This document shows positions 4,577-31,267 of a DNA stretch of 32,000 nucleotides, in pieces. This stretch comes from Fibrobacter succinogenes subsp. succinogenes S85 (GTDB lineage Bacteria; Fibrobacterota; Fibrobacteria; Fibrobacterales; Fibrobacteraceae): NCBI RefSeq assembly GCF_000146505.1, contig NC_017448.1:2370001-2402000 (forward strand), in the 5' to 3' direction. A program made the translations under genes and the position numbers. Positions within the stretch are counted from its first letter, which is position 1, and each line of letters opens with the position of its first letter. The notes under the pieces are model-generated. The model did not search any database and was not told the origin of the DNA. It saw only the letters and a list, made by a program, of their open reading frames with translations.

Positions 4577-4582
4577 GAGGTT

Positions 4583-4627
4583 TTAGACGAAAGACCGCTT
4601 ACGCTGGTAGACGAGAGACGAAAGAAG
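4583..4627 (+). repeat. GACGARAGAC-class intergenic repeat, subtype II copy
   Basis: TTAGACGAAAGACCGCTTACGCTGGTAGACGAGAGACGAAAGAAG. It is near-identical (about 36 of 39 positions) to 9726-9765. Confidence 0.8.
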
Positions 4628-4646: not shown

Positions 4647-4668
4647 ATCCCGGAACGGAGTCCGGGAT
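4647..4668 (-). terminator. Hairpin terminator candidate after ptsN
   Basis: 8-bp perfect stem atcccgga / tccgggat with a 6-nt loop. On the minus strand a weak T-rich tail follows (TGAATTTTAT). It is flanked by the two inverted repeat arms 4583-4627 and 4681-4726. Confidence 0.5.
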
Positions 4669-4680
4669 GATATTGAAAAT

Positions 4681-4726
4681 CTCTAGTCTTTCGTCTGTAG
4701 GCTCGTAGAGCCGTTCTTTCGTCTAA
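4681..4726 (-). repeat. GACGARAGAC-class intergenic repeat, subtype I copy, starting right after the ptsN stop
   Basis: The minus strand reads TTAGACGAAAGAACGG-CTCTACGAG-CCTACAGACGAAAGACTAGAG. The flanks match 29846-29892, with a different but still complementary central hairpin. Confidence 0.8.
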
Positions 4727-5268: not shown

Positions 5269-6030
5269 CTAAAATATGTTTAAAAAAGAAGATAATTCTA
5301 TCTGTGAAGTGGTATTTTCGAGCCTGTCGATGGCTTTTCGCATGAGCGCGACGTCAATTTGGCCGGGGGCGGCCGCCTTTCCGATGGAACCGTAAGTGAG
5401 GTTTGCCCCCTCTTTCAAAGACCAGATTCGGCTGATTTTTCCGGTTTCTCCCATGCCGAATGCGGCGATGAACTTGAACCCTTTTGCTCTTTTGGCGAAC
5501 TTGTAGAGGCGCGAGCAGTCGTCGTCGGAGTTGCTCATGGCGGCAATTTTGATGCCGTCTGCCTTCACCCGTTTGACGTCGGTGAGGTAGTTCTTGAGTT
5601 CAAGGTCGGTTGGGATGCGGGTGAAGTTGTGCTCGGAAATGAGGATTTTCACGCCCTTCGGGGCCGCAAGTTCACGGAGCTTGTCGTAGTCGTGCAGGCA
5701 GTCGCGTTCAAGGTCCAGCCATTCCGGCACGTCCGATGCGTTGAGAATTTGTTCAAAAAGTCCAAGGCGCTCGATGGCGCGTGCGTCGGGGAATGTACCG
5801 CCGTCACGCTTGAGGCGGATGGTTCCGAGCTGTATTGCCTTCGGGACGAGCTTGCGGATTCGCGCAGAAAGTCCTTGCCATTCGGATTCGTCAAAAAAAT
5901 CGTAACGGATTTCGAGGATGTCGCAGCTTTCAAAGTCAATGCGCGCCGGGTGGAGTTCTTCGCTTTCGGCGGCGGTAAGCGTTTCGGGACTCACGAGCCC
6001 GACTAGGTATTTTTGAGAATCTGTTGGCAT
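5269..6030 (-). CDS. aroD: Type I 3-dehydroquinate dehydratase
   Basis: The ORF track extends to 6204, but the first 58 codons translate the intergenic repeat region. I start at the ATG at 6030 (MPTDSQKYLVGLV). Motifs present: DILEIRYDFF, ISEHNF (His) and IKIAAM (Schiff-base Lys), typical of type I DHQase. Confidence 0.8.
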   Translation of the reverse strand: MPTDSQKYLVGLVSPETLTAAESEELHPARIDFESCDILEIRYDFFDESEWQGLSARIRKLVPKAIQLGTIRLKRDGGTFPDARAIERLGLFEQILNASDVPEWLDLERDCLHDYDKLRELAAPKGVKILISEHNFTRIPTDLELKNYLTDVKRVKADGIKIAAMSNSDDDCSRLYKFAKRAKGFKFIAAFGMGETGKISRIWSLKEGANLTYGSIGKAAAPGQIDVALMRKAIDRLENTTSQIELSSFLNIF

Positions 6031-6050
6031 GGTAGTATAAATATAGAATA

Positions 6051-6075
6051 TAGACGAGAGACGAAAGACGAGAGA
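6051..6075 (+). repeat. Heptamer array TAGACGA GAGACGA AAGACGA GAGA
   Basis: Three and a half tandem NAGACGA units lie in the aroD/clpP divergent intergenic region. Confidence 0.8.
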
Positions 6076-6113
6076 TATTGAATGCACGCGAAGCGTGCCA
6101 ATATAGCAATCGG

Positions 6114-6169
6114 CTAATGACCAATGACTATTGACTAATAACAGTTGACTAATGGCGATTGACGAACGA
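6114..6169 (+). repeat. Eight-unit heptamer array CTAATGA CCAATGA CTATTGA CTAATAA CAGTTGA CTAATGG CGATTGA CGAACGA
   Basis: The array parses in one 7-nt register. TGAC recurs at 6118, 6125, 6132, 6146 and 6160, at spacings of 7 or 14 nt. It lies upstream of clpP. Confidence 0.8.
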
Positions 6170-6173
6170 TAAT
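6145..6173 (+). promoter_or_regulatory. Candidate sigma70-type clpP promoter
   Basis: TTGACT (6145-6150), a 17-nt spacer, then GATAAT (6168-6173), about 43 nt before the clpP ATG. It is embedded in the heptamer array, so other TTGAC boxes are alternatives. Confidence 0.4.
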
Positions 6174-9723: not shown

Positions 9724-9765
9724 TGTTAGATGAAAGACCGCAACGCTGGTAGACGAGAGACGAGG
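9724..9765 (+). repeat. GACGARAGAC-class repeat, subtype II copy, directly after the GT2 stop
   Basis: TGTTAGA TGAAAGA CCGCAAC GCTGGTA GACGAGA GACGAGG in 7-nt register. The core at 9726-9765 matches 4583-4621. Its 3' GAGG doubles as the SD for the next gene. Confidence 0.8.
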
Positions 9766-10229: not shown

Positions 10230-10266
10230 ATTTGTTTTAAATAATACTTGTTTTTTTTCAATAATT

Positions 10267-10293
10267 ATGCCGCATTTGCGGCATCTCTTTTTT
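10267..10293 (+). terminator. Intrinsic terminator ending the clpP...OMP block
   Basis: Hairpin atgccgc-attt-gcggcat followed by CTCTTTTTT. Confidence 0.75.
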
Positions 10294-10479
10294 CTTCGTC
10301 ATCCTGAACCCGTAGGCGCGAAGACAACCTCAAAAGGCGAGTGTTGCAGTCATGCTTGCATGGATATAACCGAGCCTAAGAGGTTGGGGCCTGCCCCATC
10401 CAGTCAAATCTAGTTATCGCATATAACACTTTTATATATAAATTTACATTGGAAAATTTTAAACATAGGAAAATCTCTT

Positions 10480-11328
10480 ATGGAAAATAAAATGAACAAG
10501 TTCGGATTGAAAAGACTGCTCGCTGTTTTGGCGGTCGCCTTTGCATGCGTTTGTATGTGGGGGTGTTCGGATGAAAATATTGAAGAATTGTCATCTCATG
10601 ATTTAATTGGCTATTCAGGAGATTCTTTGGTAGTGTATATAGAAAGAAAATATGAGGAAAGTTGTCTTGCCAAACCCTTGGGTGATGATTGTTCTACTAG
10701 GGAAAAGGGGACAAGAATTGTTGTAGATAATTTTTATACAGAAGAGAATGTCTGGAAAAGCGACAAACTGAGGGATCAGTATGTTGTAAATGTTTATGAC
10801 TTGGTGGATGACTCGACGGTGATTGAATTCGAAAAAAACAAAAGTCACTTCTACAAGTGGACTTTGGGTAAGGACTCCGAAGACTTGGGTTATTTTGAGT
10901 GGGATGGCTGTAGTACGAAAGAAAAGGTTGGATCCATTCGTCCTTGGGGTGATGGAAAATGGCGACTTGTGGGGAGTACTGAAGATTGCGGCTACGCAAT
11001 CGTGGATGTGGCAAAAAAGAAAATAACGGGGTATGAAAAGTTAGAGAAATTTGCAGAAGAGTGCTCTGATTTATGGGATCATGAAGGGGTTAAGTACTGT
11101 GTGGGTGCTGTCAAAAAGGATTCTGTAATGTCTTATTATGAACGATTCTTAGCGGGAGCTATGATTAGAAATGACAAAGGAGTAGGTGATACTTTATGGA
11201 ATAATCAAATTGAAGGGGCTAGCTTGAATTCTTACCATGCGGTTGAATTTAAAAATGCGTTTGTTTGCTATTTAGGGAATTATTATAAAGTTGATTATAA
11301 AACTGTAAAATTGGTATTTGATCATTAA
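10480..11328 (+). CDS. Hypothetical lipoprotein (orphan, AT-rich gene)
   Basis: 282 aa. MENKMNKFGLKRLLAVLAVAFACVCMWGC is a lipobox-like signal. It is Cys-rich and matches no family I recognise. It is visibly more AT-rich than its neighbours. AGGA lies 9 nt upstream. Confidence 0.6.
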   Translation: MENKMNKFGLKRLLAVLAVAFACVCMWGCSDENIEELSSHDLIGYSGDSLVVYIERKYEESCLAKPLGDDCSTREKGTRIVVDNFYTEENVWKSDKLRDQYVVNVYDLVDDSTVIEFEKNKSHFYKWTLGKDSEDLGYFEWDGCSTKEKVGSIRPWGDGKWRLVGSTEDCGYAIVDVAKKKITGYEKLEKFAEECSDLWDHEGVKYCVGAVKKDSVMSYYERFLAGAMIRNDKGVGDTLWNNQIEGASLNSYHAVEFKNAFVCYLGNYYKVDYKTVKLVFDH

Positions 11329-11340
11329 TAGAGGGAATTA

Positions 11341-11508
11341 ATGAAAAGATTAATTTGCTGTATCGTATCAATTGCTCTTTCGCTGATTTTGGCGAAACCT
11401 ATGGAAAGTATAGAGCGTTACAATATAATTTTAGTTCATGGTGCTGCAGATAGCTTATCGGGTATGTATTGTGAGGCACCTGATTTGAAGGCTCCTTTTG
11501 AGTTTTGA
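11341..11508 (+). pseudogene. 55-codon 5' fragment of a secreted alpha/beta-hydrolase (lipase-like) gene
   Basis: MKRLICCIVSIALSLILA is a signal peptide. It is followed by YNIILVHGAADS (the oxyanion-region HG motif of lipases), then a TGA after 55 codons. No continuation exists in any frame before the terminator at 11542. GAGGGA SD upstream. It could alternatively be a genuine small protein. Confidence 0.35.
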
Positions 11509-11541
11509 ATGTCTGTTGCTGTGTCAAGTGGCCGCGTAAAA

Positions 11542-11564
11542 AATGCCCGCACATGGCGGGCATT
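11542..11564. terminator. Hairpin terminator (serves the GH5 remnant on the minus strand)
   Basis: 9-bp stem aatgcccgc / gcgggcatt with loop acatg. On the minus strand it is followed by TTTTTTAC, resembling the terminator after the intact GH5 gene (GGGGCATTTTTTAC). Confidence 0.65.
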
Positions 11565-11620
11565 GTAAAATTATGAACTGAAAGAATCCTATCGGTCGCG
11601 ACTTTCCTTTCAGGACGAAC

Positions 11621-11655
11621 CTCTAAGTTCTAAGCTCTAAGTTTTAAATTCTAAC
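11621..11655 (-). repeat. Five-unit heptamer array after the GH5-remnant stop
   Basis: The plus strand parses as CTCTAAG TTCTAAG CTCTAAG TTTTAAA TTCTAAC. The minus strand reads GTTAGAA TTTAAAA CTTAGAG CTTAGAA CTTAGAG, starting at the nucleotide after the TGA. Confidence 0.85.
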
Positions 11656-11709
11656 TCACCCCTTCGCAATCATTTCCATGAATTCGGAGTCGAGTAGGTC
11701 TTTTTCCGT
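11656..11709 (-). pseudogene. 3'-terminal remnant of a GH5 paralog (17 codons plus stop)
   Basis: The minus strand encodes TEKDLLDSEFMEMIAKG*. The intact GH5 gene at 12763 ends PERLDRELMEMIAKG*. My hand alignment gives 34 of 45 nt identical. An in-frame stop lies immediately upstream, so only the tail survives. Confidence 0.55.
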
Positions 11710-11717
11710 TTATTGCC

Positions 11718-12278
11718 TTACGCCACCAGATCCATCAAGTCGAAGTACATCAATCGTGTATGCGGATCGTTGTCTTCCAGATTCATCATGCGGAATCCGT
11801 TCTTTTCGTAGAACGGAACTGCTGCCAAGTAGGCGTCAACCGTTATAAAGCGACAGCCTGTCTTGTTGTTGATGACGAACATGGACTTGATGATGTTTAG
11901 AACTTGTGTACCGAGTTTTTGCTTTTTGGCGCAGATGTCAACGGCTAGGCGGCAGAGCTTCACGGCGGGGTAGCTTTTTAGCCTTTTCTCGTTCGGGAAT
12001 CCTTGTTTACGGCGGAATCTGTTGAATTCCGTCATGCTAGGAAAGTCGCTGGTTGCGATTTTGTCGTTTGCCAAGCTAAAATAGGCTAAAGGCCTGCTGG
12101 TGTCGTTGATGTCAACACAGGTGTAGCTGACCGCTAACATGTATTTGTCAAAAAGAGTTGCGCGATTTAAAATGAAATCGTTTAAATCAGCATCTCCGCA
12201 GTCAAAACTTTTGACTTTGTTGAATGGTTGCAGTCGAATAAATCGAATAGACTCGTTATCTATATATTGTCGAACCAT
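11718..12278 (-). CDS. GNAT-family N-acetyltransferase, TacT/AtaT/KacT-like toxin candidate
   Basis: 186 aa. FDCGDADLNDFIL is near the N-terminus. YPAVKLCRLAVDICAKKQKLGTQVL matches the P-x-V-x-L-x-RLAVD...GxG-type acetyl-CoA motif of GNAT toxins. It has its own GGAGG SD 9 nt upstream and overlaps the upstream small gene by 19 nt. Confidence 0.7.
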   Translation of the reverse strand: MVRQYIDNESIRFIRLQPFNKVKSFDCGDADLNDFILNRATLFDKYMLAVSYTCVDINDTSRPLAYFSLANDKIATSDFPSMTEFNRFRRKQGFPNEKRLKSYPAVKLCRLAVDICAKKQKLGTQVLNIIKSMFVINNKTGCRFITVDAYLAAVPFYEKNGFRMMNLEDNDPHTRLMYFDLMDLVA

Positions 12279-12478
12279 GGATCTTTACCTCCGTTAGCGG
12301 CTTCGCGGGCACGCTTTTCTCGCATGCCTCGTTCAAAAGCTTTTAGGAAAAATTCGTAGTCCCGTAAACGTTGGGCACGAGCTTCCGGAGTTTCGGGGTG
12401 CCTCTCCTGCATACGGGCGATAAACCGGCGAGCATCCTCGCCGAACAAAATCGGAGTTTCTCTGATGGGTCTTGCCAT
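12260..12478 (-). CDS. Small partner protein of the GNAT gene (putative antitoxin, family not recognised)
   Basis: 72 aa, beginning MARPIRETPILFGEDARRFIARMQERHPE. It is Arg/Glu-rich and helical. Its position and 19-nt overlap with the GNAT gene fit a type II TA operon. It does not look like DUF1778/TacA to me. AGGA lies 5 nt upstream. Confidence 0.55.
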   Translation of the reverse strand: MARPIRETPILFGEDARRFIARMQERHPETPEARAQRLRDYEFFLKAFERGMREKRAREAANGGKDPWFDNI

Positions 12479-12485
12479 GAGTATC

Positions 12486-12503
12486 CTATTTGTTAGTTGT
12501 TAG
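12486..12503. repeat. CTATTTGTTAGTTGTT direct repeat, copy 1 (tandem TGTTAG, 7-nt spacing), abutting the antitoxin start
   Basis: The exact 16-mer recurs at 12662-12677. TGTTAG is at 12491 and 12498. A further TGTTAG at 12635 sits in AACAACTGTTAG. Confidence 0.7.
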
Positions 12504-12661
12504 AATAAAAGTAACTGATATATTAACGCCCGGCTGGACCGGATGGCATCCTCAATGGATCCGTACTAAAAAATATATAAGCCAAAAATAAAATGCAAGG
12601 GGTCGGAATTTTGACCGTTCATTTTGTCAACAACTGTTAGCAAGGGACTGTGGCAAATGTG

Positions 12662-12677
12662 CTATTTGTTAGTTGTT
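12662..12677. repeat. CTATTTGTTAGTTGTT direct repeat, copy 2
   Basis: Exact 16-nt match to 12486-12501, 176 nt away. It lies next to the GH5 terminator. Confidence 0.7.
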
Positions 12678-12684
12678 CAATAGT

Positions 12685-12712
12685 AAAAAATGCCCCGGAT
12701 TTAATCCGAGGC
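12685..12712 (-). terminator. Intrinsic terminator after the GH5 gene
   Basis: Hairpin gccccgga-tttaa-tccgaggc (7 of 8 pairs). On the minus strand it is followed by ATTTTTTAC. Confidence 0.65.
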
Positions 12713-12720
12713 GTTCTTGT

Positions 12721-12762
12721 CTAAATTCTGAGTTCTGCTGGCTGCTTACTGCGGCGAAGCCG
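12721..12762 (-). repeat. Six-unit heptamer array after the GH5 stop
   Basis: The minus strand, from the nucleotide after TAA, reads CGGCTTC GCCGCAG TAAGCAG CCAGCAG AACTCAG AATTTAG. Confidence 0.75.
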
Positions 12763-16007: not shown

Positions 16008-16042
16008 TAACTGGTGATTAGTTAATAGTTGCTAGTTTAAGT
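16008..16042 (+). repeat. Five-unit TAG-loaded heptamer array after the GGDEF gene stop
   Basis: TAACTGG TGATTAG TTAATAG TTGCTAG TTTAAGT begins at the nucleotide after the TAG stop. The 11-mer TGGTGATTAGT is shared with the array at 23425-23487. Confidence 0.85.
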
Positions 16043-16068
16043 ATGGCGGCAAAGCCGCAAAAAGAAAA

Positions 16069-16088
16069 GCCGCGGATTTTTCCGCGGC
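16069..16088. terminator. Bidirectional intrinsic terminator between the GGDEF gene and eda
   Basis: Perfect 8-bp stem gccgcgga-tttt-tccgcggc. T-rich tracts follow on both strands (ATTTTCG on plus, TTTTCTTTTTG on minus). A second small hairpin gcggc-aaa-gccgc lies at 16046-16058. Confidence 0.8.
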
Positions 16089-16831: not shown

Positions 16832-18037
16832 CTACTCAAACCTGAGCGCTTCAATCGGGTCGAGCCTGCTTGCCTTGCGGGCGGGGTACCATCCGAAGAA
16901 TACGCCTGTGGCAAAGCACACGCCAAAGCTCACGATAACGCTTGTGACGGAAACGCTCATGGGCCAGTTCATCGCAATCTTTACAGTTTCTGAAGCGGCA
17001 ATGCCGAGCGCAATTCCGATGGCGCCACCGAGCAAGCTGATAATTACGGATTCGAACAAAAATTGTAAAAGGATGTCGCGGCCGCGAGCGCCGATAGCCA
17101 TGCGAAGGCCGATTTCCTTTGTACGTTCAGTGACGGAAACGTACATGATGTTCATAATGCCGATACCGCCAACGAACAAACTAATTCCTGCGATGGCGGT
17201 CAGCACGAGCGAGAGCATGTCGGAAGTGCTTGTGACCATCTGGATCATTTCTTCTTGCGTGAACACGCGGAACGGGTCGGTCGGTTTAGTCCAGTTGCGG
17301 CGTTCCTTTAGAATGGTCATGATTTCTTCGGTCGCTTTTGCGGCATAGCCTTCACCGATGGAGTTCGCGTAAATCTGTCGGATATTCGTCGTGGCGGAGA
17401 ATCGCCTCATCACGGTCTGGTACGGAGTGAAAATAACATCGTCCTGGTCTTGCCCGAAATCGCCGGAGCCTTTAGCCTTGAGTGTACCGATGACTTTTAG
17501 CGGGATGCTCTTGTAGCGGATGGTCTTGCCGATGGGGTCTGCGTCCGGGAAAAGGTTTTTGACGACAGTTTGGCCGATAACGCAGACCTTTGCCATGCGG
17601 TCGGTTTCGTCGTCAAACATGACGCCGTCCTGGATTTCGTAGTTGCGGATCTTGAGGTAGTCTGCAGAAACACCGGAGAGCGTGGTGGGGGAGTTATTGT
17701 TTCCAACTATTGCTTGGCCGCCAACGGTGACCATGGGGGAAACACCGTTGATGTAGCTTGCGTTTTCGCGGATGGCAATGACGTCCTCTTCTTCAAGAGT
17801 TTCTGTCGATTCCGTCTGGACGCCGCCCCGGCGGCTCTGGTTTGGCATGATGGTGATTGCGTTTGTACCCATTGCAGTCATCTGTTCCTTGATGGACTTC
17901 TTGGAGCCTTCGCCCATGGCGACCATGGTGATAACGGCTGCAACGCCGATGACTATACCGAGTACGGAGAGAAATGTGCGCATGCGGTTACGGAGCAACG
18001 CGCGGAGAGCGATTTTAGCTAAGGTAAACGGATTCAT
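16832..18037 (-). CDS. ABC transporter permease, MacB/FtsX family
   Basis: 401 aa. The layout is an N-terminal TM helix, a ~220-aa periplasmic domain, then three C-terminal TM helices with the FtsX-type signature (GIGIMNIMYVSVTERTKEIGLRMAIGA). Confidence 0.88.
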   Translation of the reverse strand: MNPFTLAKIALRALLRNRMRTFLSVLGIVIGVAAVITMVAMGEGSKKSIKEQMTAMGTNAITIMPNQSRRGGVQTESTETLEEEDVIAIRENASYINGVSPMVTVGGQAIVGNNNSPTTLSGVSADYLKIRNYEIQDGVMFDDETDRMAKVCVIGQTVVKNLFPDADPIGKTIRYKSIPLKVIGTLKAKGSGDFGQDQDDVIFTPYQTVMRRFSATTNIRQIYANSIGEGYAAKATEEIMTILKERRNWTKPTDPFRVFTQEEMIQMVTSTSDMLSLVLTAIAGISLFVGGIGIMNIMYVSVTERTKEIGLRMAIGARGRDILLQFLFESVIISLLGGAIGIALGIAASETVKIAMNWPMSVSVTSVIVSFGVCFATGVFFGWYPARKASRLDPIEALRFE

Positions 18038-21178: not shown

Positions 21179-23281
21179 ATGAAAAAAATAGTCGCAATGT
21201 CTCTCTTGGCCGGTAGCTTCGCTTTCGCGCAGTCTGGCCTGATGGGCGGAGCCGATGGTCTCAACCAGAAAACAGCCCAAACCCTCGGTGAAGGTGGTTT
21301 TGCTGCCGGTTTCGGTGGCCAGGTCTCTTATGACGCTTGGTCCCTCACCCGTGGTGGCCAATTTAGTAAGGGTGGCAAGAACGCAGCCTTCTATGACAAT
21401 GCTGGTAGCCTTACTGCAAATATTAACTTTGCAGCTGGCGTTACCGACTTCATTGACGTAGGCCTTGCTCTTCCGCTTTACTACGATCATGCCAACTCCC
21501 CGAAGAACGGTGAAGGTGACATGTGGAAGGCTAGCCGTGGTGACCTCGAATTCTGGGCAAAGGCAAAGCTTCCGCTCGATGAAATGACTGATGGCATCTT
21601 CAATGCTGCCATTGCTGCTCAGTTCTACTTCCCGACTGGCGACAAGTCCGTCGGTGTTCGTCCGCGTCATGCTTGGTTCTTGAGTGCCAAGGGTGGTGAA
21701 ACCCATCCGTATGGCCTCCGCAACATGGCTTTCGGCGGTGAATTGATCCTCACTCTCGACCTCCAGAAGGTTGGCGCTCCGCTCCGTTTCAACGGTAACG
21801 TCGGTTTCGTCGGCACTGTGACGAAGGGTTCTAACACCTTGGTCTACGGTGGTGGCATCAACGTCCTCCCGACTGACTGGATGGACTTCTTCGTTGAAGC
21901 TAACGGTGAATTCCGTGTTGAAAAGGGTGAATATGATCGTGAACCGGGTTATGACCCGTTCACTCTTACCCCGGGCTTCCGTTTCCACCTCCCGGCAAAC
22001 ATCGACATCGCTCTCGGTCTCGATGTGGGTATCCGTGCTCTCTCCAACTTCACTTGGAAGTACAAGGACGAAATGAAGGATGCTGACAAGTATCAGCTCT
22101 ACTACACCGACAAGAACGGTAAGAAAGTCCAGTACGGTTATGCTTCGACCCCGCATTATGCTGGTACCGCATCTCTCGTCTGGCGCTTCGGTAACGTCCG
22201 CGGTGCTGACGAAGATAACGATGGCGTAGCAAACAACATCGACCAGTGCGCAGGCACTCCGGCTGGTGCTGTTGTTGACGCTAACGGCTGCCCGGTTGAC
22301 GGTGATAACGACGGCGTGTTCGACGGTCTCGACCAGTGCGCTGAAACTCCGGCTGGTGCTGTTGTTGACGCTGCTGGCTGCCCGGTTGACTCCGACAATG
22401 ACGGTGTCGCTGACGGCATCGACCAGTGCGCTGAAACTCCGGCTGGCGTTGTTGTTGACGCTGCTGGCTGCCCGGTTGACTCTGACAAGGATGGCGTTGC
22501 CGATCACCTCGACAAGTGCCCGAACACTGTTTCTGGTGCTACGATCGATGCTAACGGCTGCCCGATCGACTCTGACAAGGATGGCGTTGCAGACTACCTC
22601 GACCAGTGCCCGAATACTCAGTCTGGCATTGCTGTTGACGGCAAGGGCTGCCCGGTTGACTCTGACAATGACGGCGTAGCTGACTACCTCGACAAGTGCC
22701 CGAGCACTCCGGCTGGTCTCCCGGTTAACGCTGATGGTTGCAGCCCGGATAGCGATAAGGACGGCATCGTTGACGCTCTTGACAAGTGCCCGAATACTCC
22801 GGCTGGCGTCTCTGTTGACGAAGTTGGTTGCCCGGTTGACTCTGACAAGGATGGCGTTGCCGATCACCTCGACAAGTGCCCGAACACCCTCGTTGGCGTT
22901 GCAGTTGATAAGAACGGCTGCCCGAACAAGAACCAGGACCTCGACAAGCTCAAGAAGGGTATCCAGTTCAAGACCGGTTCTGCTAAGCTCACTGCAAGCA
23001 GCAACAAGACCTTGAACAACATCGCTAAGTTGCTCAAGAAGCTCCCGGCTGTCAACCTCGAAGTCCAGGGTCACACGGATGACACTGGTTCTGAAGAAAA
23101 GAACAAGACCATGTCCGAACAGCGTGCTCAGGCTGTTGTCAAGTACCTCGTCAAGAAGGGCATTGACAGCGAACGTCTCCGCGCAGTCGGTTACGGTTCT
23201 GACAAGCCGATCGCAGATAACAAGACTAAGAAGGGCCGCAAGCTCAACCGCCGTGTTGAACTCGTTCCGTTCGAAAAGTAA
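21179..23281 (+). CDS. OmpA-family outer membrane protein: N-terminal barrel, 8 thrombospondin type-3 repeats, C-terminal OmpA/peptidoglycan-binding domain
   Basis: Signal peptide MKKIVAMSLLAGSFAFA. A ~340-aa beta-rich region comes next, then 8 units of DxDxDGVxDxxDxCPxTPxGxxVDxxGCP. The C-terminus carries NLEVQGHTDDTGSEEKNKTMSEQRAQAV...NRRVEL (OmpA_C motif). AAGGAGA SD lies 19 nt after the wzc stop. Confidence 0.92.
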   Translation: MKKIVAMSLLAGSFAFAQSGLMGGADGLNQKTAQTLGEGGFAAGFGGQVSYDAWSLTRGGQFSKGGKNAAFYDNAGSLTANINFAAGVTDFIDVGLALPLYYDHANSPKNGEGDMWKASRGDLEFWAKAKLPLDEMTDGIFNAAIAAQFYFPTGDKSVGVRPRHAWFLSAKGGETHPYGLRNMAFGGELILTLDLQKVGAPLRFNGNVGFVGTVTKGSNTLVYGGGINVLPTDWMDFFVEANGEFRVEKGEYDREPGYDPFTLTPGFRFHLPANIDIALGLDVGIRALSNFTWKYKDEMKDADKYQLYYTDKNGKKVQYGYASTPHYAGTASLVWRFGNVRGADEDNDGVANNIDQCAGTPAGAVVDANGCPVDGDNDGVFDGLDQCAETPAGAVVDAAGCPVDSDNDGVADGIDQCAETPAGVVVDAAGCPVDSDKDGVADHLDKCPNTVSGATIDANGCPIDSDKDGVADYLDQCPNTQSGIAVDGKGCPVDSDNDGVADYLDKCPSTPAGLPVNADGCSPDSDKDGIVDALDKCPNTPAGVSVDEVGCPVDSDKDGVADHLDKCPNTLVGVAVDKNGCPNKNQDLDKLKKGIQFKTGSAKLTASSNKTLNNIAKLLKKLPAVNLEVQGHTDDTGSEEKNKTMSEQRAQAVVKYLVKKGIDSERLRAVGYGSDKPIADNKTKKGRKLNRRVELVPFEK
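22208..22927 (+). repeat. 8 x 90-bp in-frame tandem repeats encoding TSP3-type Ca-binding units
   Basis: The units begin at D-E-D-N-D-G (22208) and end at G-C-P-N (22927). There is an exact 57-nt duplicate at 22471-22527 and 22831-22887. A near-exact ~63-nt duplicate lies at 22331-22393 and 22421-22483. Confidence 0.9.
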
Positions 23282-23303: not shown

Positions 23304-23335
23304 AAAAAGGGGCGTCCGCAAGGACGCCCTTTTTG
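23304..23335 (+). terminator. Intrinsic terminator after the OmpA-family gene
   Basis: Hairpin gggcgtcc-gcaa-ggacgccc followed by TTTTTGT. Confidence 0.85.
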
Positions 23336-23403
23336 TATATGCAGAATGATGCAAATCGCTGTAGACATGTTTCGCGGTGTTGCAAGCATGCTGCACAAAG
23401 AAA

Positions 23404-23420
23404 GCGCACGACCCGTGCGC
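23404..23420 (-). terminator. Hairpin terminator candidate after the gtrA-like gene
   Basis: gcgcacg-acc-cgtgcgc. On the minus strand it is followed by TTTCTTTGTG. Confidence 0.55.
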
Positions 23421-23424
23421 CTTT

Positions 23425-23487
23425 CTAATACTTAGCCACTAATCACCAACCACTAACCACTGCTTACCGCCTACTGTCTACTTCCTA
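23425..23487 (-). repeat. Nine-unit TAG/TAA-loaded heptamer array directly after the gtrA-like stop
   Basis: The minus strand after the TAG stop reads TAGGAAG TAGACAG TAGGCGG TAAGCAG TGGTTAG TGGTTGG TGATTAG TGGCTAA GTATTAG. Confidence 0.9.
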
Positions 23488-23904
23488 CTATTTTTTAAAC
23501 ACCCACTTCTTATAGAGCGTAAAGCTAACAAGCACGTAGACGACGTTGGCGACAAAGCTTGCGAATGTTGTCGGCTTCATGAACCGTGAAACGAATTCCG
23601 TGAAGCTTGCGCACCAGGCTGCGTTTTCGAGCAAGTAGATGCTTCCTTTGAGGACCGCCAGGTTCACGAGATACGAGCAGAGGAATACGACGATGAATCT
23701 TATGACTTCGGCACGCTTCTTGTTTGTGCTCTTGAAATTCCAGATGCGGTTACAGATGTAACTGTTGAGCCCGCCGGCAACAAATCCCAAAAAGTTTGAA
23801 AGAACCACGTCCCAATCTAAGACTTCGTGCAAAAGCCAGACTGTAAAGAATGTAATGGCGGTGTTCATTACACCGATAGCGTTGTATTTGATAAAATGTT
23901 TCAC
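23488..23904 (-). CDS. GtrA-family membrane protein
   Basis: The ORF-track ORF (23488..24486) is over-extended antisense to the CoA-transferase gene. GtrA-like sequence begins at (V)KHFIKYNAIGVMNTAITFFTVWLL, so I propose the GTG start at 23904 (138 aa, 4 TM helices). The start codon is uncertain. Confidence 0.65.
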   Translation of the reverse strand: MKHFIKYNAIGVMNTAITFFTVWLLHEVLDWDVVLSNFLGFVAGGLNSYICNRIWNFKSTNKKRAEVIRFIVVFLCSYLVNLAVLKGSIYLLENAAWCASFTEFVSRFMKPTTFASFVANVVYVLVSFTLYKKWVFKK

Positions 23905-23934
23905 GGCGGTAAAAATACTATTTTTTGCTACGAT

Positions 23935-25422
23935 ATGACCTGGATTACAACTAAGAAATGCAGTGCTGCCAGCGCTGCAGATATGATTCGTAATGGCGAT
24001 GTTCTCGGGGTTTCTGGATTTACTTTGGCTGGATACCCCAAAGCGGTTCCTCTGGCGCTTGCTGCGCGCGCTGAAAAATTGCACGAAGCAGGTCAGGAAT
24101 TTAAAGTAACTTTGTTTGCAGGCGCCTCGACGGGCGACAGTTGCGATGGTGCTCTCGCCCGCGCAAAGGCATTGTCGCTCCGCATGCCTTATCAGTCCAA
24201 TCCGAGCTTGCGCAAGGCGATTAACGACGGTAGCATCCGTTACATTGACGCTCACTTGGGCAAGATGGGTTACCTTGTTCGCACGGGTGCTGTCCCTGCG
24301 CCGACGGTTGCGATTATTGAAGTTTCTGCGATTTTGCCGGATGGCCGCGTTTGCCTCTCGACTTCGGGCGGTAACTCCGTTTGCTATCTGGAAATGGCTC
24401 CGAAGATTATTTTGGAATTGAACACGCGCTTGGGTGATAGCTGCATTGGCATGCACGATAACGCTCTTCCGGAGCTCCCGCCGCATGCAAAGCCGCTTGC
24501 AATTTATAGCGCTGGTGACCGCGTGGGTGGTGAATTTGTTCAGATTGACCCGAACAAGGTCATTGCGATTGTTGAAAACGAAGCGTATGATGAAGTGACT
24601 CCGTTTGTGGAACCTGATGAGGTTTCAAAGAACATCGGCGAACGCATCTTGGACTTTATCCGATTTGAAGAATCGCATGGCAGGCTCCCTAAGGGACTTG
24701 CTTACCAGAGCGGTGTTGGCAAGGTGGCGAATGCAGTGCTTTGCGCGATGGCTGACGATGACCGCCTGGGACAAATTGACCTTTACACCGAAGTGATTCA
24801 GGAAGCGGTGCTCCCGCTTTTGAAGAAGGGCAAGCTCGGCATTGCTTCTGGTACTGCTTTGACGCTTTCGCAGACGGCACAGAAAGAATTTGTTGAAAAC
24901 AGCGCTGAATGGAAAAAGCATTTCATTATCCGCCAGCAAGAAGTGAGCAATAGCCCGGATGTAATCCGTCGCTTGGGTGTGATTTCTATGAACACGGCTC
25001 TGGAAGCGGATATCTTTGGCAATGTGAACAGCTCGCTTGTGTGCGGTTCTGCGATGATGAACGGCATTGGCGGCTCGGCTGATTTTGCACGAAATTGCGC
25101 ACTCGGATTTTTCCTCACGCCGTCTGTGGCAAAGGGCGGTGCGATTTCGAGCATTGTGCCTTACGTGAGCCATGTGGACCATACCGATCACGACACGCAG
25201 ATTTTTGTGACGGAACAGGGGCTTGCTGACCTTCGTGGCTTGCCTGTAGAAGAACGCGCCCGCCTGATTATCAAGAACTGCGCCCACCCAGATTACCGCG
25301 ATGCTCTCACGGATGTTCTGGAGTACGGCCTCAAGCATGCGAAGGGCGTCCATGTGCCGCTTGCACTTTCCCGCGCTTTCGAAATGCACACCCGCTTCCT
25401 TGAAACTGGTAAGATGCTGTAA
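23935..25422 (+). CDS. Acetyl-CoA hydrolase/transferase family protein (succinyl-CoA:acetate CoA-transferase-like)
   Basis: Start trimmed to the ATG at 23935 (MTWITTKKCSAASAADMIRNGDVLGVSGFTLAGYPKAVPLALA is the canonical N-terminus). MMNGIGGSADF (GxGGxxDF) lies near the C-terminal domain. 495 aa. Confidence 0.88.
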   Translation: MTWITTKKCSAASAADMIRNGDVLGVSGFTLAGYPKAVPLALAARAEKLHEAGQEFKVTLFAGASTGDSCDGALARAKALSLRMPYQSNPSLRKAINDGSIRYIDAHLGKMGYLVRTGAVPAPTVAIIEVSAILPDGRVCLSTSGGNSVCYLEMAPKIILELNTRLGDSCIGMHDNALPELPPHAKPLAIYSAGDRVGGEFVQIDPNKVIAIVENEAYDEVTPFVEPDEVSKNIGERILDFIRFEESHGRLPKGLAYQSGVGKVANAVLCAMADDDRLGQIDLYTEVIQEAVLPLLKKGKLGIASGTALTLSQTAQKEFVENSAEWKKHFIIRQQEVSNSPDVIRRLGVISMNTALEADIFGNVNSSLVCGSAMMNGIGGSADFARNCALGFFLTPSVAKGGAISSIVPYVSHVDHTDHDTQIFVTEQGLADLRGLPVEERARLIIKNCAHPDYRDALTDVLEYGLKHAKGVHVPLALSRAFEMHTRFLETGKML

Positions 25423-29845: not shown

Positions 29846-29936
29846 TTAGACGAAAGAACGGACCTTAGGTCCTACAGACGAAAGACTAGAGAAAGATGAG
29901 GAAAATCACTCGTCTCTCGTCACTCGTCTCTCGTCT
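29846..29936 (+). repeat. 13-unit single-register heptamer array: GACGARAGAC-class subtype I copy plus 4 x CTCGTCT
   Basis: Starting at the nucleotide after the TGA stop: TTAGACG AAAGAAC GGACCTT AGGTCCT ACAGACG AAAGACT AGAGAAA GATGAGG AAAATCA CTCGTCT CTCGTCA CTCGTCT CTCGTCT. Confidence 0.9.
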
Positions 29937-30904: not shown

Positions 30905-31267
30905 ATGAAGAAAACAGTCCGTATCAGTTTCGAAGGCAAGACCTACGACGTCGAAGTAGAAGTTCTTGATTCCGCAGTTGCTGCAGCTCCTGCTGCTCCG
31001 GTTGCCGCTCCGGCCCCGGCTCCTGCTGCTGCTCCGGCTCCGGCCGTCGCTGGTGGCACCGAAGTCAAGAGCCCGCTCGCTGGCTCTGTGTTCAAGCTCA
31101 AGGTCAACGTTGGTGACACTGTTGCTGCCAACCAGGAAGTGGCTGTTATCGAAGCCCTCAAGATGGAAAACCCGGTCGTCGCTCCGTGCGCAGGCAAGGT
31201 TACCTCTATCTCCGTCAAGGAAACCGACACTGTTACTGATGGCCAGGTCTTGATGACCATTGCCTAA
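30905..31267 (+). CDS. Biotin carboxyl carrier subunit (biotinyl domain) of a decarboxylase
   Basis: 120 aa. An Ala/Pro linker leads into a biotinyl/lipoyl fold. VAVIEALKMENPVVAP carries the (A/S)-x-K-M biotinylation motif variant. Confidence 0.8.
   Translation: MKKTVRISFEGKTYDVEVEVLDSAVAAAPAAPVAAPAPAPAAAPAPAVAGGTEVKSPLAGSVFKLKVNVGDTVAANQEVAVIEALKMENPVVAPCAGKVTSISVKETDTVTDGQVLMTIA

Follow-up and report, generated by a model that had tools for sequence, protein, structure and literature searches.

The stretch of DNA analyzed here, hereafter the window, is a 32,000-nt segment of the Fibrobacter succinogenes subsp. succinogenes S85 genome (contig NC_017448.1, positions 2,370,001 to 2,402,000), and its point of interest is an array of 7-nt repeats that lies directly behind a gtrA-like gene. 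This gene occupies 23488-23903 on the minus strand, begins with GTG and encodes a 138-amino-acid (aa) product with the Pfam domain GtrA. Behind its stop codon (TAG, 23488-23490) come 63 nt that parse as nine degenerate heptamers in one register (minus strand, 23487 to 23425): TAGGAAG TAGACAG TAGGCGG TAAGCAG TGGTTAG TGGTTGG TGATTAG TGGCTAA GTATTAG. TAGGAAG-type units thus come first and TGGTTAG-type units after, and together they make up the whole 3' untranslated region (UTR) from the stop to an intrinsic-terminator-like hairpin at 23396-23424 (minus strand; GGCGCACGGGTCGTGCGC, then TTTCTTT). The other boundary of the spacer is formed by the bidirectional terminator hairpin of a convergent ompA-like gene (23310-23329). 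The G-rich, C-poor, TAG-bearing strand of the array is the sense strand of gtrA, and folding predicts it to be near-unstructured ahead of its terminator. An earlier note on this DNA, made from the letters alone, had proposed the nine heptamers and their single register, and both are confirmed: the lag-7 self-identity of the array is 0.62, and its periodicity is matched by 0 of 5000 dinucleotide shuffles, whether lag 7 alone or every lag between 2 and 13 is considered (P<2e-4).

A look-up of the exact GtrA protein returned S85 as the sole match. At 23827-23950 the longest open reading frames (ORFs) of gtrA (332 aa) and of a divergent acetyl-CoA hydrolase gene (531 aa) overlap; the NCBI starts are the GTG that gives the 138-aa product and a later start that gives a 508-aa hydrolase, and lists of longest ORFs are misleading at this junction.

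Period 7 in Fibrobacter spacers

Arrays of this kind are a general property of Fibrobacter spacers, not of 3' flanks. We scanned one genome per species at the loci that carry the neighboring acetyl-CoA hydrolase gene, namely 50 in Fibrobacter (889 kb) and 14 in outgroups, with genes in the former called by our own dicodon gene caller; about 38 kb of S85 sequence were covered, and the Fibrobacter loci, being orthologous, represent only about 23 independent spacers. Lag 7 gave 86 segments in the Fibrobacter DNA, other lags that are not multiples of 3 gave 1 to 6 each, and periods 4, 5, 8, 10, 11 and 13 were essentially absent. The arrays are intergenic in 89 of 92 cases, though spacers make up only about 10% of the DNA. 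Intergenic DNA shows peaks at lags 7, 14 and 21 in tandem, convergent and divergent spacers alike, and no such peaks were found in the spacers of the 14 outgroup loci. The lag-7 excess that the earlier note expected is therefore present, and 3' flanks are not special in this respect. Lag profiles anchored on stops or on starts over fixed 63-nt flanks have their signal diluted by neighboring genes, and true spacers were used instead.

Since the arrays mix unit families and are only 50-75% self-identical at lag 7, they are degenerate or cryptic arrays, and near-perfect copies of one unit are not what we find. What is common to them is the 7-nt register and not one unit sequence, in line with the initial description. 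The predicted loading with stop codons is also borne out: among phase-locked trinucleotides TAG ranks first (50 of 89 arrays), at a density of 7.6 per 100 nt in arrays versus 2.5 in intergenic DNA.

In the window, a sliding-window count finds 10 to 11 segments at lag 7 and 0 at lags 2, 4, 5, 8, 10, 11 and 13, and Tandem Repeats Finder reports period 7 at 23436-23489, 6036-6075, 6114-6163, 11622-11654 and 29909-29936. Seven arrays had been claimed there. When each was compared with 5000 dinucleotide shuffles, once at lag 7 alone and once allowing any of the lags 2 to 13, five proved individually significant: besides the focal one, those at 11621-11655 and 29846-29936 (both P<2e-4), 16008-16042 (P of 0.002 and 0.02, respectively) and 12721-12762 (0.003 and 0.02). 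The remaining two, at 9724-9765 (0.017 and 0.12) and 4681-4726 (0.054 and 0.44), are marginal as arrays, and they are what could be cited for chance, or for a compositional artefact of AT-rich intergenic DNA. That explanation, which we find hardly credible, is refuted by the enrichment of lag 7 and its multiples only, by the lack of signal in the outgroup loci and by the shuffles that never match the focal array, and the pattern is repeated in 80 metagenome and 80 viral contigs (see below).

Two Bacteroidales loci of the outgroup (Porphyromonadaceae/Muribaculaceae; L051 1742-2644 and L052 3293-3449) carry heptamer arrays of the AATTAGT, TAAACTT and TAATGCA types, inverted pairs included.

Placement at gene borders and strand polarity

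Placement had been thought specific to stop codons. At borders with a spacer of at least 40 nt, an array lies within 40 nt of about 7% of gene starts, and stops have the same share (about 7%), so that the two kinds of border do not differ. Arrays do lie at gene borders more often than by chance: 43 of 87 Fibrobacter arrays abut one (12 nt or less; 29 a start and 14 a stop), whereas arrays placed at random within their own spacers would give 18.6 +/- 3.4. Array-bearing stops are more often TAG (45% versus 32%).

At the same distance, the orientation in Fibrobacter is 9:1 at stops in favor of the TAG-bearing G-rich strand as sense, and 23:0 at starts in favor of the complementary G-poor strand. 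The composition of the sense strand follows suit, with 27% G and 13% C in arrays near stops, 9% G and 30% C in those near starts, and no G/C skew in array-free gene flanks. Upstream of array-adjacent starts G amounts to 7% (21% at other starts), and a Shine-Dalgarno core accompanies 3% of these starts versus 32% of ordinary ones. Leading out of a gene end, the G-rich strand carries TAG, TAA or TGA once per unit, so that 21 nt suffice to close all three frames, and the stop codon of the gene may be provided by the array itself. Leading towards a start codon, the strand is G-poor and therefore holds almost no start codons and no Shine-Dalgarno motif; little structure is also to be expected of it. 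Arms that occur together are complementary and form a long hairpin, which in some cases encloses a small GC hairpin or a terminator.

Two independent sets, 80 metagenome contigs (L066-L145) and 80 viral IMG/VR contigs (L196-L275), were chosen by one unit family (TGRTTRG x3) and analyzed with a longest-ORF heuristic and a border distance of 15 nt or less. The TGGTTAG/TGATTAG/TGGTTGG family was present in at least 120 contigs of each kind, viral and metagenome, at GC contents of 27-70%. Many of the metagenome contigs (GC 27-69%) hold further arrays, at lag 7 and at no other lag. In the viral loci, 203 lag-7 segments were counted over 642 kb. Polarity in the metagenome set is 26 sense versus 2 antisense at stops and 15 G-poor-sense versus 6 at starts; in the viral set it is 38:2 and 18:10. 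Pooled over the three sets, stops give 73:5 (binomial P = 1.5e-16) and starts 56:16 (P = 2.4e-6). Of the flanking ORFs checked, 18 of 20 contain Pfam domains, several of which reach near the array-facing end. In the metagenome contigs, ORFs often enter the array by one to three codons, and the array's own TAG is the stop. The claim that arrays begin at or within a few nucleotides of the stop codon is to this extent correct, and it fails for the array at 11621-11655, which lies about 60 nt away.

One metagenome contig, L080, is cyanobacterial as judged by a Tab2-like gene.

Inverted array pairs have the G-rich arm first in 89 cases and the C-rich arm first in 19. As a pair of the form X-loop-rc(X), with rc(X) the reverse complement of X, reads X first on both strands, this single polarity suffices for the whole rule at stops and starts. 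A replication-strand cause of orientation was rejected, as the stop-side and start-side arrays of a tandem spacer are oppositely skewed on the same DNA strand. A GC hairpin behind most arrays, as the earlier note had it, is indeed seen in the window. Across the larger data sets, only about 25% of arrays have a perfect GC hairpin 35 nt away or closer, and in the metagenome set neither side is preferred; a 'hairpin-centred element' was dropped as the defining feature.

The strand rule invites the view that the arrays are selected as punctuation of RNA. A TAG array behind a stop would halt ribosomes in any frame, away from the terminator hairpin; before a start, a G-free unstructured leader, devoid of start codons and Shine-Dalgarno motifs, would permit Shine-Dalgarno-independent loading, and paired arms would serve as a regulatory or stabilizing hairpin. 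We hold this to be possible, though rather unlikely. It agrees with G-poor arrays that reach the ATG in place of a Shine-Dalgarno at genes with Pfam-supported starts, and it leaves unexplained why the period is 7 and never 4, 5, 8 or 10. The latter objection applies equally to the all-frame stop pad suggested at the outset as a possible role: any step that is not a multiple of 3 would do, and selection for such a step cannot set the period because periods 4, 5, 8 and 10 are missing, as are 11 and 13. We do not read the arrays as a dedicated stop-pad device. Period 7 must have its source either in the process that generates the arrays or in a footprint of 7 nt.

Arrays and hairpin modules of the window

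Behind the GGDEF gene, the array at 16008-16042 (plus strand; TAACTGG TGATTAG TTAATAG TTGCTAG) is followed by hairpins at 16045-16058 and 16069-16088. Behind the GH5 gene, that at 12721-12762 (minus strand) opens with a CGGC-TTC-GCCG hairpin, continues with TAAGCAG CCAGCAG AACTCAG AATTTAG, and is succeeded by a terminator at 12692-12712. The CTTAGAR array at 11621-11655 (minus strand) lies about 60 nt downstream of a gene at 11718-12278 that had been taken for a GH5 remnant and is in fact a GNAT acetyltransferase gene.

Three further arrays escape a view limited to post-stop positions. One, at 6036-6075 (minus strand), abuts the aroD start codon (6028-6030) and reads TCTCTCGTCTTTCGTCTCTCGTCTATATTCTATA on the aroD sense strand, which is G-poor and has no Shine-Dalgarno. 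In the same spacer, beyond a small GC hairpin at 6084-6098 (GCACGC-GAA-GCGTGC), a CTAATGA-type array at 6105-6163 (plus strand) runs into the clpP promoter, whose -35 lies at 6145. The third, at 4581-4625 (minus strand), is a pyrimidine-rich arm (TCTTTCGTCTCTCGTCT...) that stops 5 nt before the -35 element of the tRNA-Val promoter (4576-4548). It is complementary to a purine-rich arm at 4681-4726 (minus strand), directly behind the ptsN stop, which consists of AGACGAAAGAAC, a hairpin GGCTC-TAC-GAGCC and TACAGACGAAAGA; a terminator-like GC hairpin (4647-4668, minus strand) occupies the center of this ptsN/tRNA-Val spacer, which as a whole folds with z=-7.0 versus shuffles.

Upstream of clpP, TTGAC occurs three times at a spacing of 14 nt (6127-6165), and between strains only the promoter-proximal part is conserved (-35 at 6145, -10 ending at 6173). 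The -35 region may be the source from which the clpP array expanded.

A second copy of the ptsN arrangement lies directly behind the stop of lipoprotein paralog 2 (29846-29892, plus strand; AGACGAAAGAAC, hairpin GGACC-TTA-GGTCC, TACAGACGAAAGA), with a complementary pyrimidine arm, CTCGTCT x4, at 29909-29936 (plus strand), about 80 nt upstream of the next gene; this arm pair folds with z=-4.6. Composite two-arm spacers fold well below shuffles (z = -4.6, -7.0 and -5.3). Another copy, at 9724-9765 (plus strand; AGATGAAAGA...AGACGAGAGACGAGG), fills the 47-nt spacer from the stop of the GT2 gene to the next start and provides a GAGG upstream of the ATG of that gene. The two marginal arrays, at ptsN and GT2, are better described as copies of this AGACGARAGA-hairpin module.

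Both these foldings and the location of the window arrays exactly between stop and terminator at gtrA, GH5, GGDEF and ptsN are consistent with a punctuating role in RNA; the C-rich arms upstream of promoters speak against it. The hairpins behind the gtrA, GH5 and ptsN arrays combine a GC stem with a T-run, as intrinsic terminators do, and the arrays are no part of them. An Rfam 15 scan of the window (E<=1) passed only tRNA-Val; weak matches to small RNAs, situated on terminators, fell far under threshold.

The earlier note also held that units differ between loci and that the arrays are not copies of one mobile element. The difference is partial. AGACGAR units recur at six places of the window and TNNTTAG units at four, and near-identical modules stand at unlinked loci (4680-4726 and 29846-29892; 4585-4625 and 9728-9765). 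The sequences at 4680-4726 (minus strand) and 29846-29892 (plus strand) are identical outside a hairpin of 5 bp with a 3-nt loop, in which two pairs covary in a compensatory manner. The module, AGACGAAAGAAC-hairpin-TACAGACGARAGA, occurs in other species as well with different stems, all of whose positions pair (GGACC, GGCTC, GGGCC, GCCCGCC and GCCC, by copy), between conserved flanks; its hairpin is exactly two units long (14 nt), and its purine strand starts 2-4 nt behind the stops of four unrelated gene families. Moreover, a 27-nt string of the S85 gtrA array (23436-23462) is found in the GH5 flank of L186/L188, a non-orthologous locus.

Such copies raise the question of a miniature dispersed or mobile element, arrays and small hairpins being copied between spacers by insertion or ectopic conversion in the manner of REPINs or the small dispersed repeats of cyanobacteria (see below), with polarity as a property of a palindromic element. 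The near-identical modules at unlinked loci and in other species, always 2-4 nt behind a stop, the covarying hairpin and the 27-nt string point that way, and the X-loop-rc(X) form alone would yield the strand rule. The unit series is nevertheless mostly unique to each locus, the 7-nt period is not accounted for, and no transposase is linked to the arrays, none having been searched for. Even with the strain comparisons that follow, we judge an element of this sort unlikely.

Variation between species and strains

Arrays are present at the same spacers across many species, which could be expected of selected RNA signals, but many orthologous flanks are array-free. At gtrA, an array that begins at the stop is found in about 15 of 48 Fibrobacter species, in differing unit families; about 33 have none, several of them having just the stop codon followed by a terminator. 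L009 keeps the terminator of S85, with a different array in front of it.

At closer range, a strain series was found via an identical ClpP protein, with flanks 96-97% identical to those of S85. In the aroD/clpP spacer and in the ptsN and GH5 flanks, its arrays are swapped wholesale between sharply conserved borders, and the variable cassette of the aroD/clpP spacer ends exactly at the aroD ATG and the clpP -35. The 6036-6075 array is exchanged for CTTAGAA units in L186/L194/L195. In the GH5 flank, 28 nt of S85 are swapped for 28 nt in L186 (TGGTTAG TGGTTGG TGATTAG TGGTTAG). The GGDEF flanks of L186 and L001 contain an array with a different unit series, and the 9724-9765 module is identical in L186. 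These cassette-like swaps between conserved flanks would fit copying between spacers.

A 134-nt array-hairpin-array block (hairpin GTGCC-AAA-GGCAC) separates the ABC ATPase and permease genes of an operon in 15 species (L001 3862-4001), and the permease start behind it has no Shine-Dalgarno in L001 and the 14 others. S85 lacks the block altogether, and its ABC ATPase and FtsX-like permease genes overlap (ATGA, 18034-18037) behind an AAGGAG Shine-Dalgarno. Both alternatives claim this locus: a block that stands in place of a Shine-Dalgarno-coupled overlap suits punctuation of RNA, which its complete absence from S85 does not, and its presence or absence between two operon genes resembles an insertion, yet this sole clean presence/absence site shows no target-site duplication.

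As for changes in length, the orthologous-flank comparison proposed with the initial description recovered array-bearing flanks, and one spacer differs by 21 nt, or three units, between S85 and L193; no excess of multiples of 7 was seen in the indel spectrum of orthologous spacers from GTDB species representatives (11.7% versus 12.1%), a comparison uninformative at such divergence. Independent (resequenced) S85 assemblies have identical arrays with no change in length. Phase variation by a contingency simple sequence repeat was rejected, the arrays being degenerate, outside ORFs, beside housekeeping genes and identical in these assemblies.

The array at 11621-11655 sits within a 2.4-kb segment that is present in S85 and missing from L186/L188. 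This part of S85 (10230-12700) contains a 282-aa ORF, a 55-aa N-terminal fragment resembling an alpha/beta-hydrolase, the GNAT gene and a 72-aa ORF. In L186/L188, hyp152 and GH5 converge over a 113-nt spacer composed of a stop, four TAG-type units, an A-tract, hairpin and T-tract, four CTA-type units and a stop; in S85, the segment resembles an insertion into this spacer.

Relation to known repeat systems

Whether such arrays had been reported before was left undecided by the earlier note; closely similar ones were already in print. Rehm et al. (2015; PMC4692102) described G-rich heptameric intergenic repeats in Xanthomonas (GGGAATC) and Nostoc PCC 7120 (GGGGA(C/T)T), located on the sense strand up to 50 bp past stops, stop overlap included, and on the antisense strand in the 50 bp before ORFs. 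Each genome has some 70 inverted pairs, and relatives have the same flanking genes with repeats that vary widely in length and sequence (PMC4692102). Like these repeats, the Fibrobacter arrays are intergenic, have a 7-nt period, follow the same strand rule (73:5 and 56:16), overlap stops, are frequently paired in inverted orientation (89:19) and vary in sequence between the same genes of relatives. Unlike them, their units have no G-runs, GG being the most (TGGTTAG, TAGGAAG, AGACGAR, CTTAGAA), and the copies are far more degenerate (lag-7 identity 0.5-0.75), with TAG as the phase-locked core. Formation of G-quadruplexes, which takes four or more tracts of at least three G, was rejected on the unit sequence, and it consequently cannot be the common denominator of these systems. 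Most Xanthomonas repeats are transcribed, which would favor a role in RNA; the same study found no regulatory effect and identified no function (PMC4692102), which would not.

The survey of Mrazek, Guo and Shah (2007), as cited in PMC4679880 and PMC4692102, found heptamers over-represented among prokaryotic repeats of 5-11 nt, intergenic and phylogenetically scattered, and proposed polymerase slippage with a polymerase contact of about 7 nt. Surveys of long simple sequence repeats (LSSRs) and short tandemly repeated repetitive sequences (STRRs) count near-perfect repeats; the Fibrobacter arrays are degenerate mixtures of unit families, and they share with those classes 7-nt head-to-tail repetition above chance and a strong non-coding bias. 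The STRR heptamers of Calothrix PCC 7601 are likewise heptameric and intergenic.

TAACTGA direct repeats occur in Beggiatoaceae, Cyanobacteria and some Bacteroidetes (MacGregor, 2015; PMC4679880). They are intergenic, and their stops in three frames restrict gene-end overlap to 18 nt; they adjoin starts that have no Shine-Dalgarno, show indels in 7-nt steps between strains and have other heptamers mixed in (PMC4679880). Stop-loading and proximity to such starts are shared with Fibrobacter, whereas the stop-bearing TAACTGA strand is the sense strand upstream of starts, opposite to the Fibrobacter rule (23:0). One exact unit dominates there, and the window has a single near-copy of it, TAACTGG at 16008.

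In Nostoc punctiforme, Elhai et al. are said to have described in 2008 small dispersed repeats (SDRs), in which covarying hairpins inside tandem heptamer arrays are dispersed across spacers. Going by that description, the embedded covarying hairpin and the dispersed copies are paralleled by the Fibrobacter module, and the difference lies in a hairpin of exactly two units and in flanks that are direct, not inverted, repeats.

Repetitive extragenic palindromes (REPs) and their hairpin-forming doublets (REPINs) resemble the arrays as short extragenic palindromes dispersed in spacers, whose inverted doublets form long hairpins, and the complementary strand of the module has a GTAG beside its hairpin, as in REP/REPIN (PMC3116915). 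REP stems, on the other hand, are conserved within a genome, whereas in Fibrobacter the stems differ and the flanks are conserved, and REPs have no 7-nt tandem structure (PMC3116915). Stems that vary between copies, unlike the REPs recognized by REP-associated tyrosine transposases (RAYTs), also argue against a dispersed element. In Geobacter metallireducens, tandem heptanucleotides occur as multi-copy 'putative global regulator sites' of four or five heptamers (PMC2700814). Like the Fibrobacter arrays they are tandem, with some classes paired on opposite strands; they differ by their units (GGACCGG, MTYCTGA) and by some copies inside genes (PMC2700814).

Our literature search found no paper linking heptamer arrays to Fibrobacter. 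The Fibrobacter arrays belong to a known, widespread and unexplained class of heptanucleotide intergenic repeats.

The 7-nt step could also reflect a register-specific binder, 7 nt being the footprint of a single-strand-binding domain such as the cold-shock domain, with one unit per domain; coating would prevent the RNA from folding, or would melt either the hairpin between the arms or the terminator. The cold-shock domain does bind a heptanucleotide, with a preference for pyrimidine-rich strands and the consensus 5'-GTCTTTG/T-3' for Bacillus subtilis CspB (PMC1904285), and cold-shock proteins (Csp), S1 and CsrA have been suggested as binders of TAACTGA repeats (PMC4679880). The pyrimidine strand of AGACGAR units (GTCTCTC/GTCTTTC) comes near the CspB consensus, as a resemblance only, and the same unit families appear in very different genomes. 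This resemblance is limited to one family, TGGTTAG/CTAACCA and TAGGAAG/CTTCCTA units being unlike the consensus, and the diversity of units inside a single array speaks against sequence-specific binding; we think such a binder improbable. It is also disfavored by the cyanobacteria, which are rich in heptamer arrays and are not known to have CspA-type proteins. A broader version, which we regard as quite doubtful, would see in the arrays a cross-phylum polar 'punctuation' of bacterial and phage spacers, with 7 nt as the footprint of a conserved fold that binds single strands (a cold-shock domain, for instance, one heptamer per domain). The G-rich arm behind stops and the G-free arm before starts would then pair into a hairpin that a protein could tune, and this hairpin would control both read-through of the terminator and initiation independent of a Shine-Dalgarno; the Fibrobacter units, which cannot form G-quadruplexes, would show that such structures had never mattered.

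Origin and significance of the arrays

The explanation that we favor, and to which we give about an even chance, is that the arrays are the product of a period-7 mutational process, filtered and oriented by selection at gene borders, and mainly a tolerated by-product. A process with an intrinsic 7-nt step, namely replication slippage combined with exchange between arrays, would make and remodel them, and they would fill unconstrained spacer up to the next functional element. They would persist only outside genes and essentially in one polarity: the stop-rich strand would be harmless or useful behind a gene and may overlap its end, and the G-free strand would be the sole orientation that brings neither start codons nor Shine-Dalgarno-like motifs before a gene. 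Translationally inert 3' spacers and leaders devoid of a Shine-Dalgarno would be side effects.

Several observations weigh against such an origin. Slippage, one of the options of the earlier note, has been proposed in the literature (PMC4679880, PMC4692102); neither the species-level indel spectrum, with no multiple-of-7 excess, nor resequenced S85, with no change of length, provides evidence for it here. Replacement at equal length (28 for 28 nt) and the 27-nt string common to two loci are unexpected under slippage plus point mutation. One unit family across contigs of 27-70% GC hints at a sequence-specific cause, and the retention of arrays at the same spacers across many species could indicate selection in their favor. 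Polarity is kept where the C-rich arm lies upstream of a promoter (clpP, tRNA-Val) and not in a 5' UTR, so that a filter based on translation is hard to invoke there. Finally, genes were called with our own caller or by heuristics, and the Fibrobacter loci, being orthologous, amount to about 23 independent spacers.

According to the 2007 survey, as cited in PMC4679880 and PMC4692102, no other class of longer simple repeats is as over-represented in the spacers of bacteria as heptamers are, and nearly twenty years later neither the reason for '7' nor a function has been established. Fibrobacter is cultivable and of about 50% GC, and its units are unable to form G-quadruplexes, yet they keep the strand rule of Xanthomonas and Nostoc; this removes one proposed explanation and indicates something more general. 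It also offers natural allele pairs, since strains 96-97% identical may differ at the same genes in having or lacking an array, or in which array they have. Because arrays supply stop codons and adjoin starts that lack a Shine-Dalgarno, the annotation of gene ends is affected.

Other repeats of the window

Other repeats of the window have different periods or positions. In the OmpA-like gene (22236-22908), a 90-nt unit in 7.3 tandem copies corresponds to thrombospondin type-3 repeats (Pfam TSP_3). The sequence ATTTGTTAGTTGTT (TTGTTAG x2) is found twice, 178 nt apart (12486-12505 and 12664-12683), in the long spacer upstream of the 72-aa ORF. At 30981-31044, a GCTCCG-based repeat with periods of 6, 18 and 24 lies amid overlapping ORFs on both strands.

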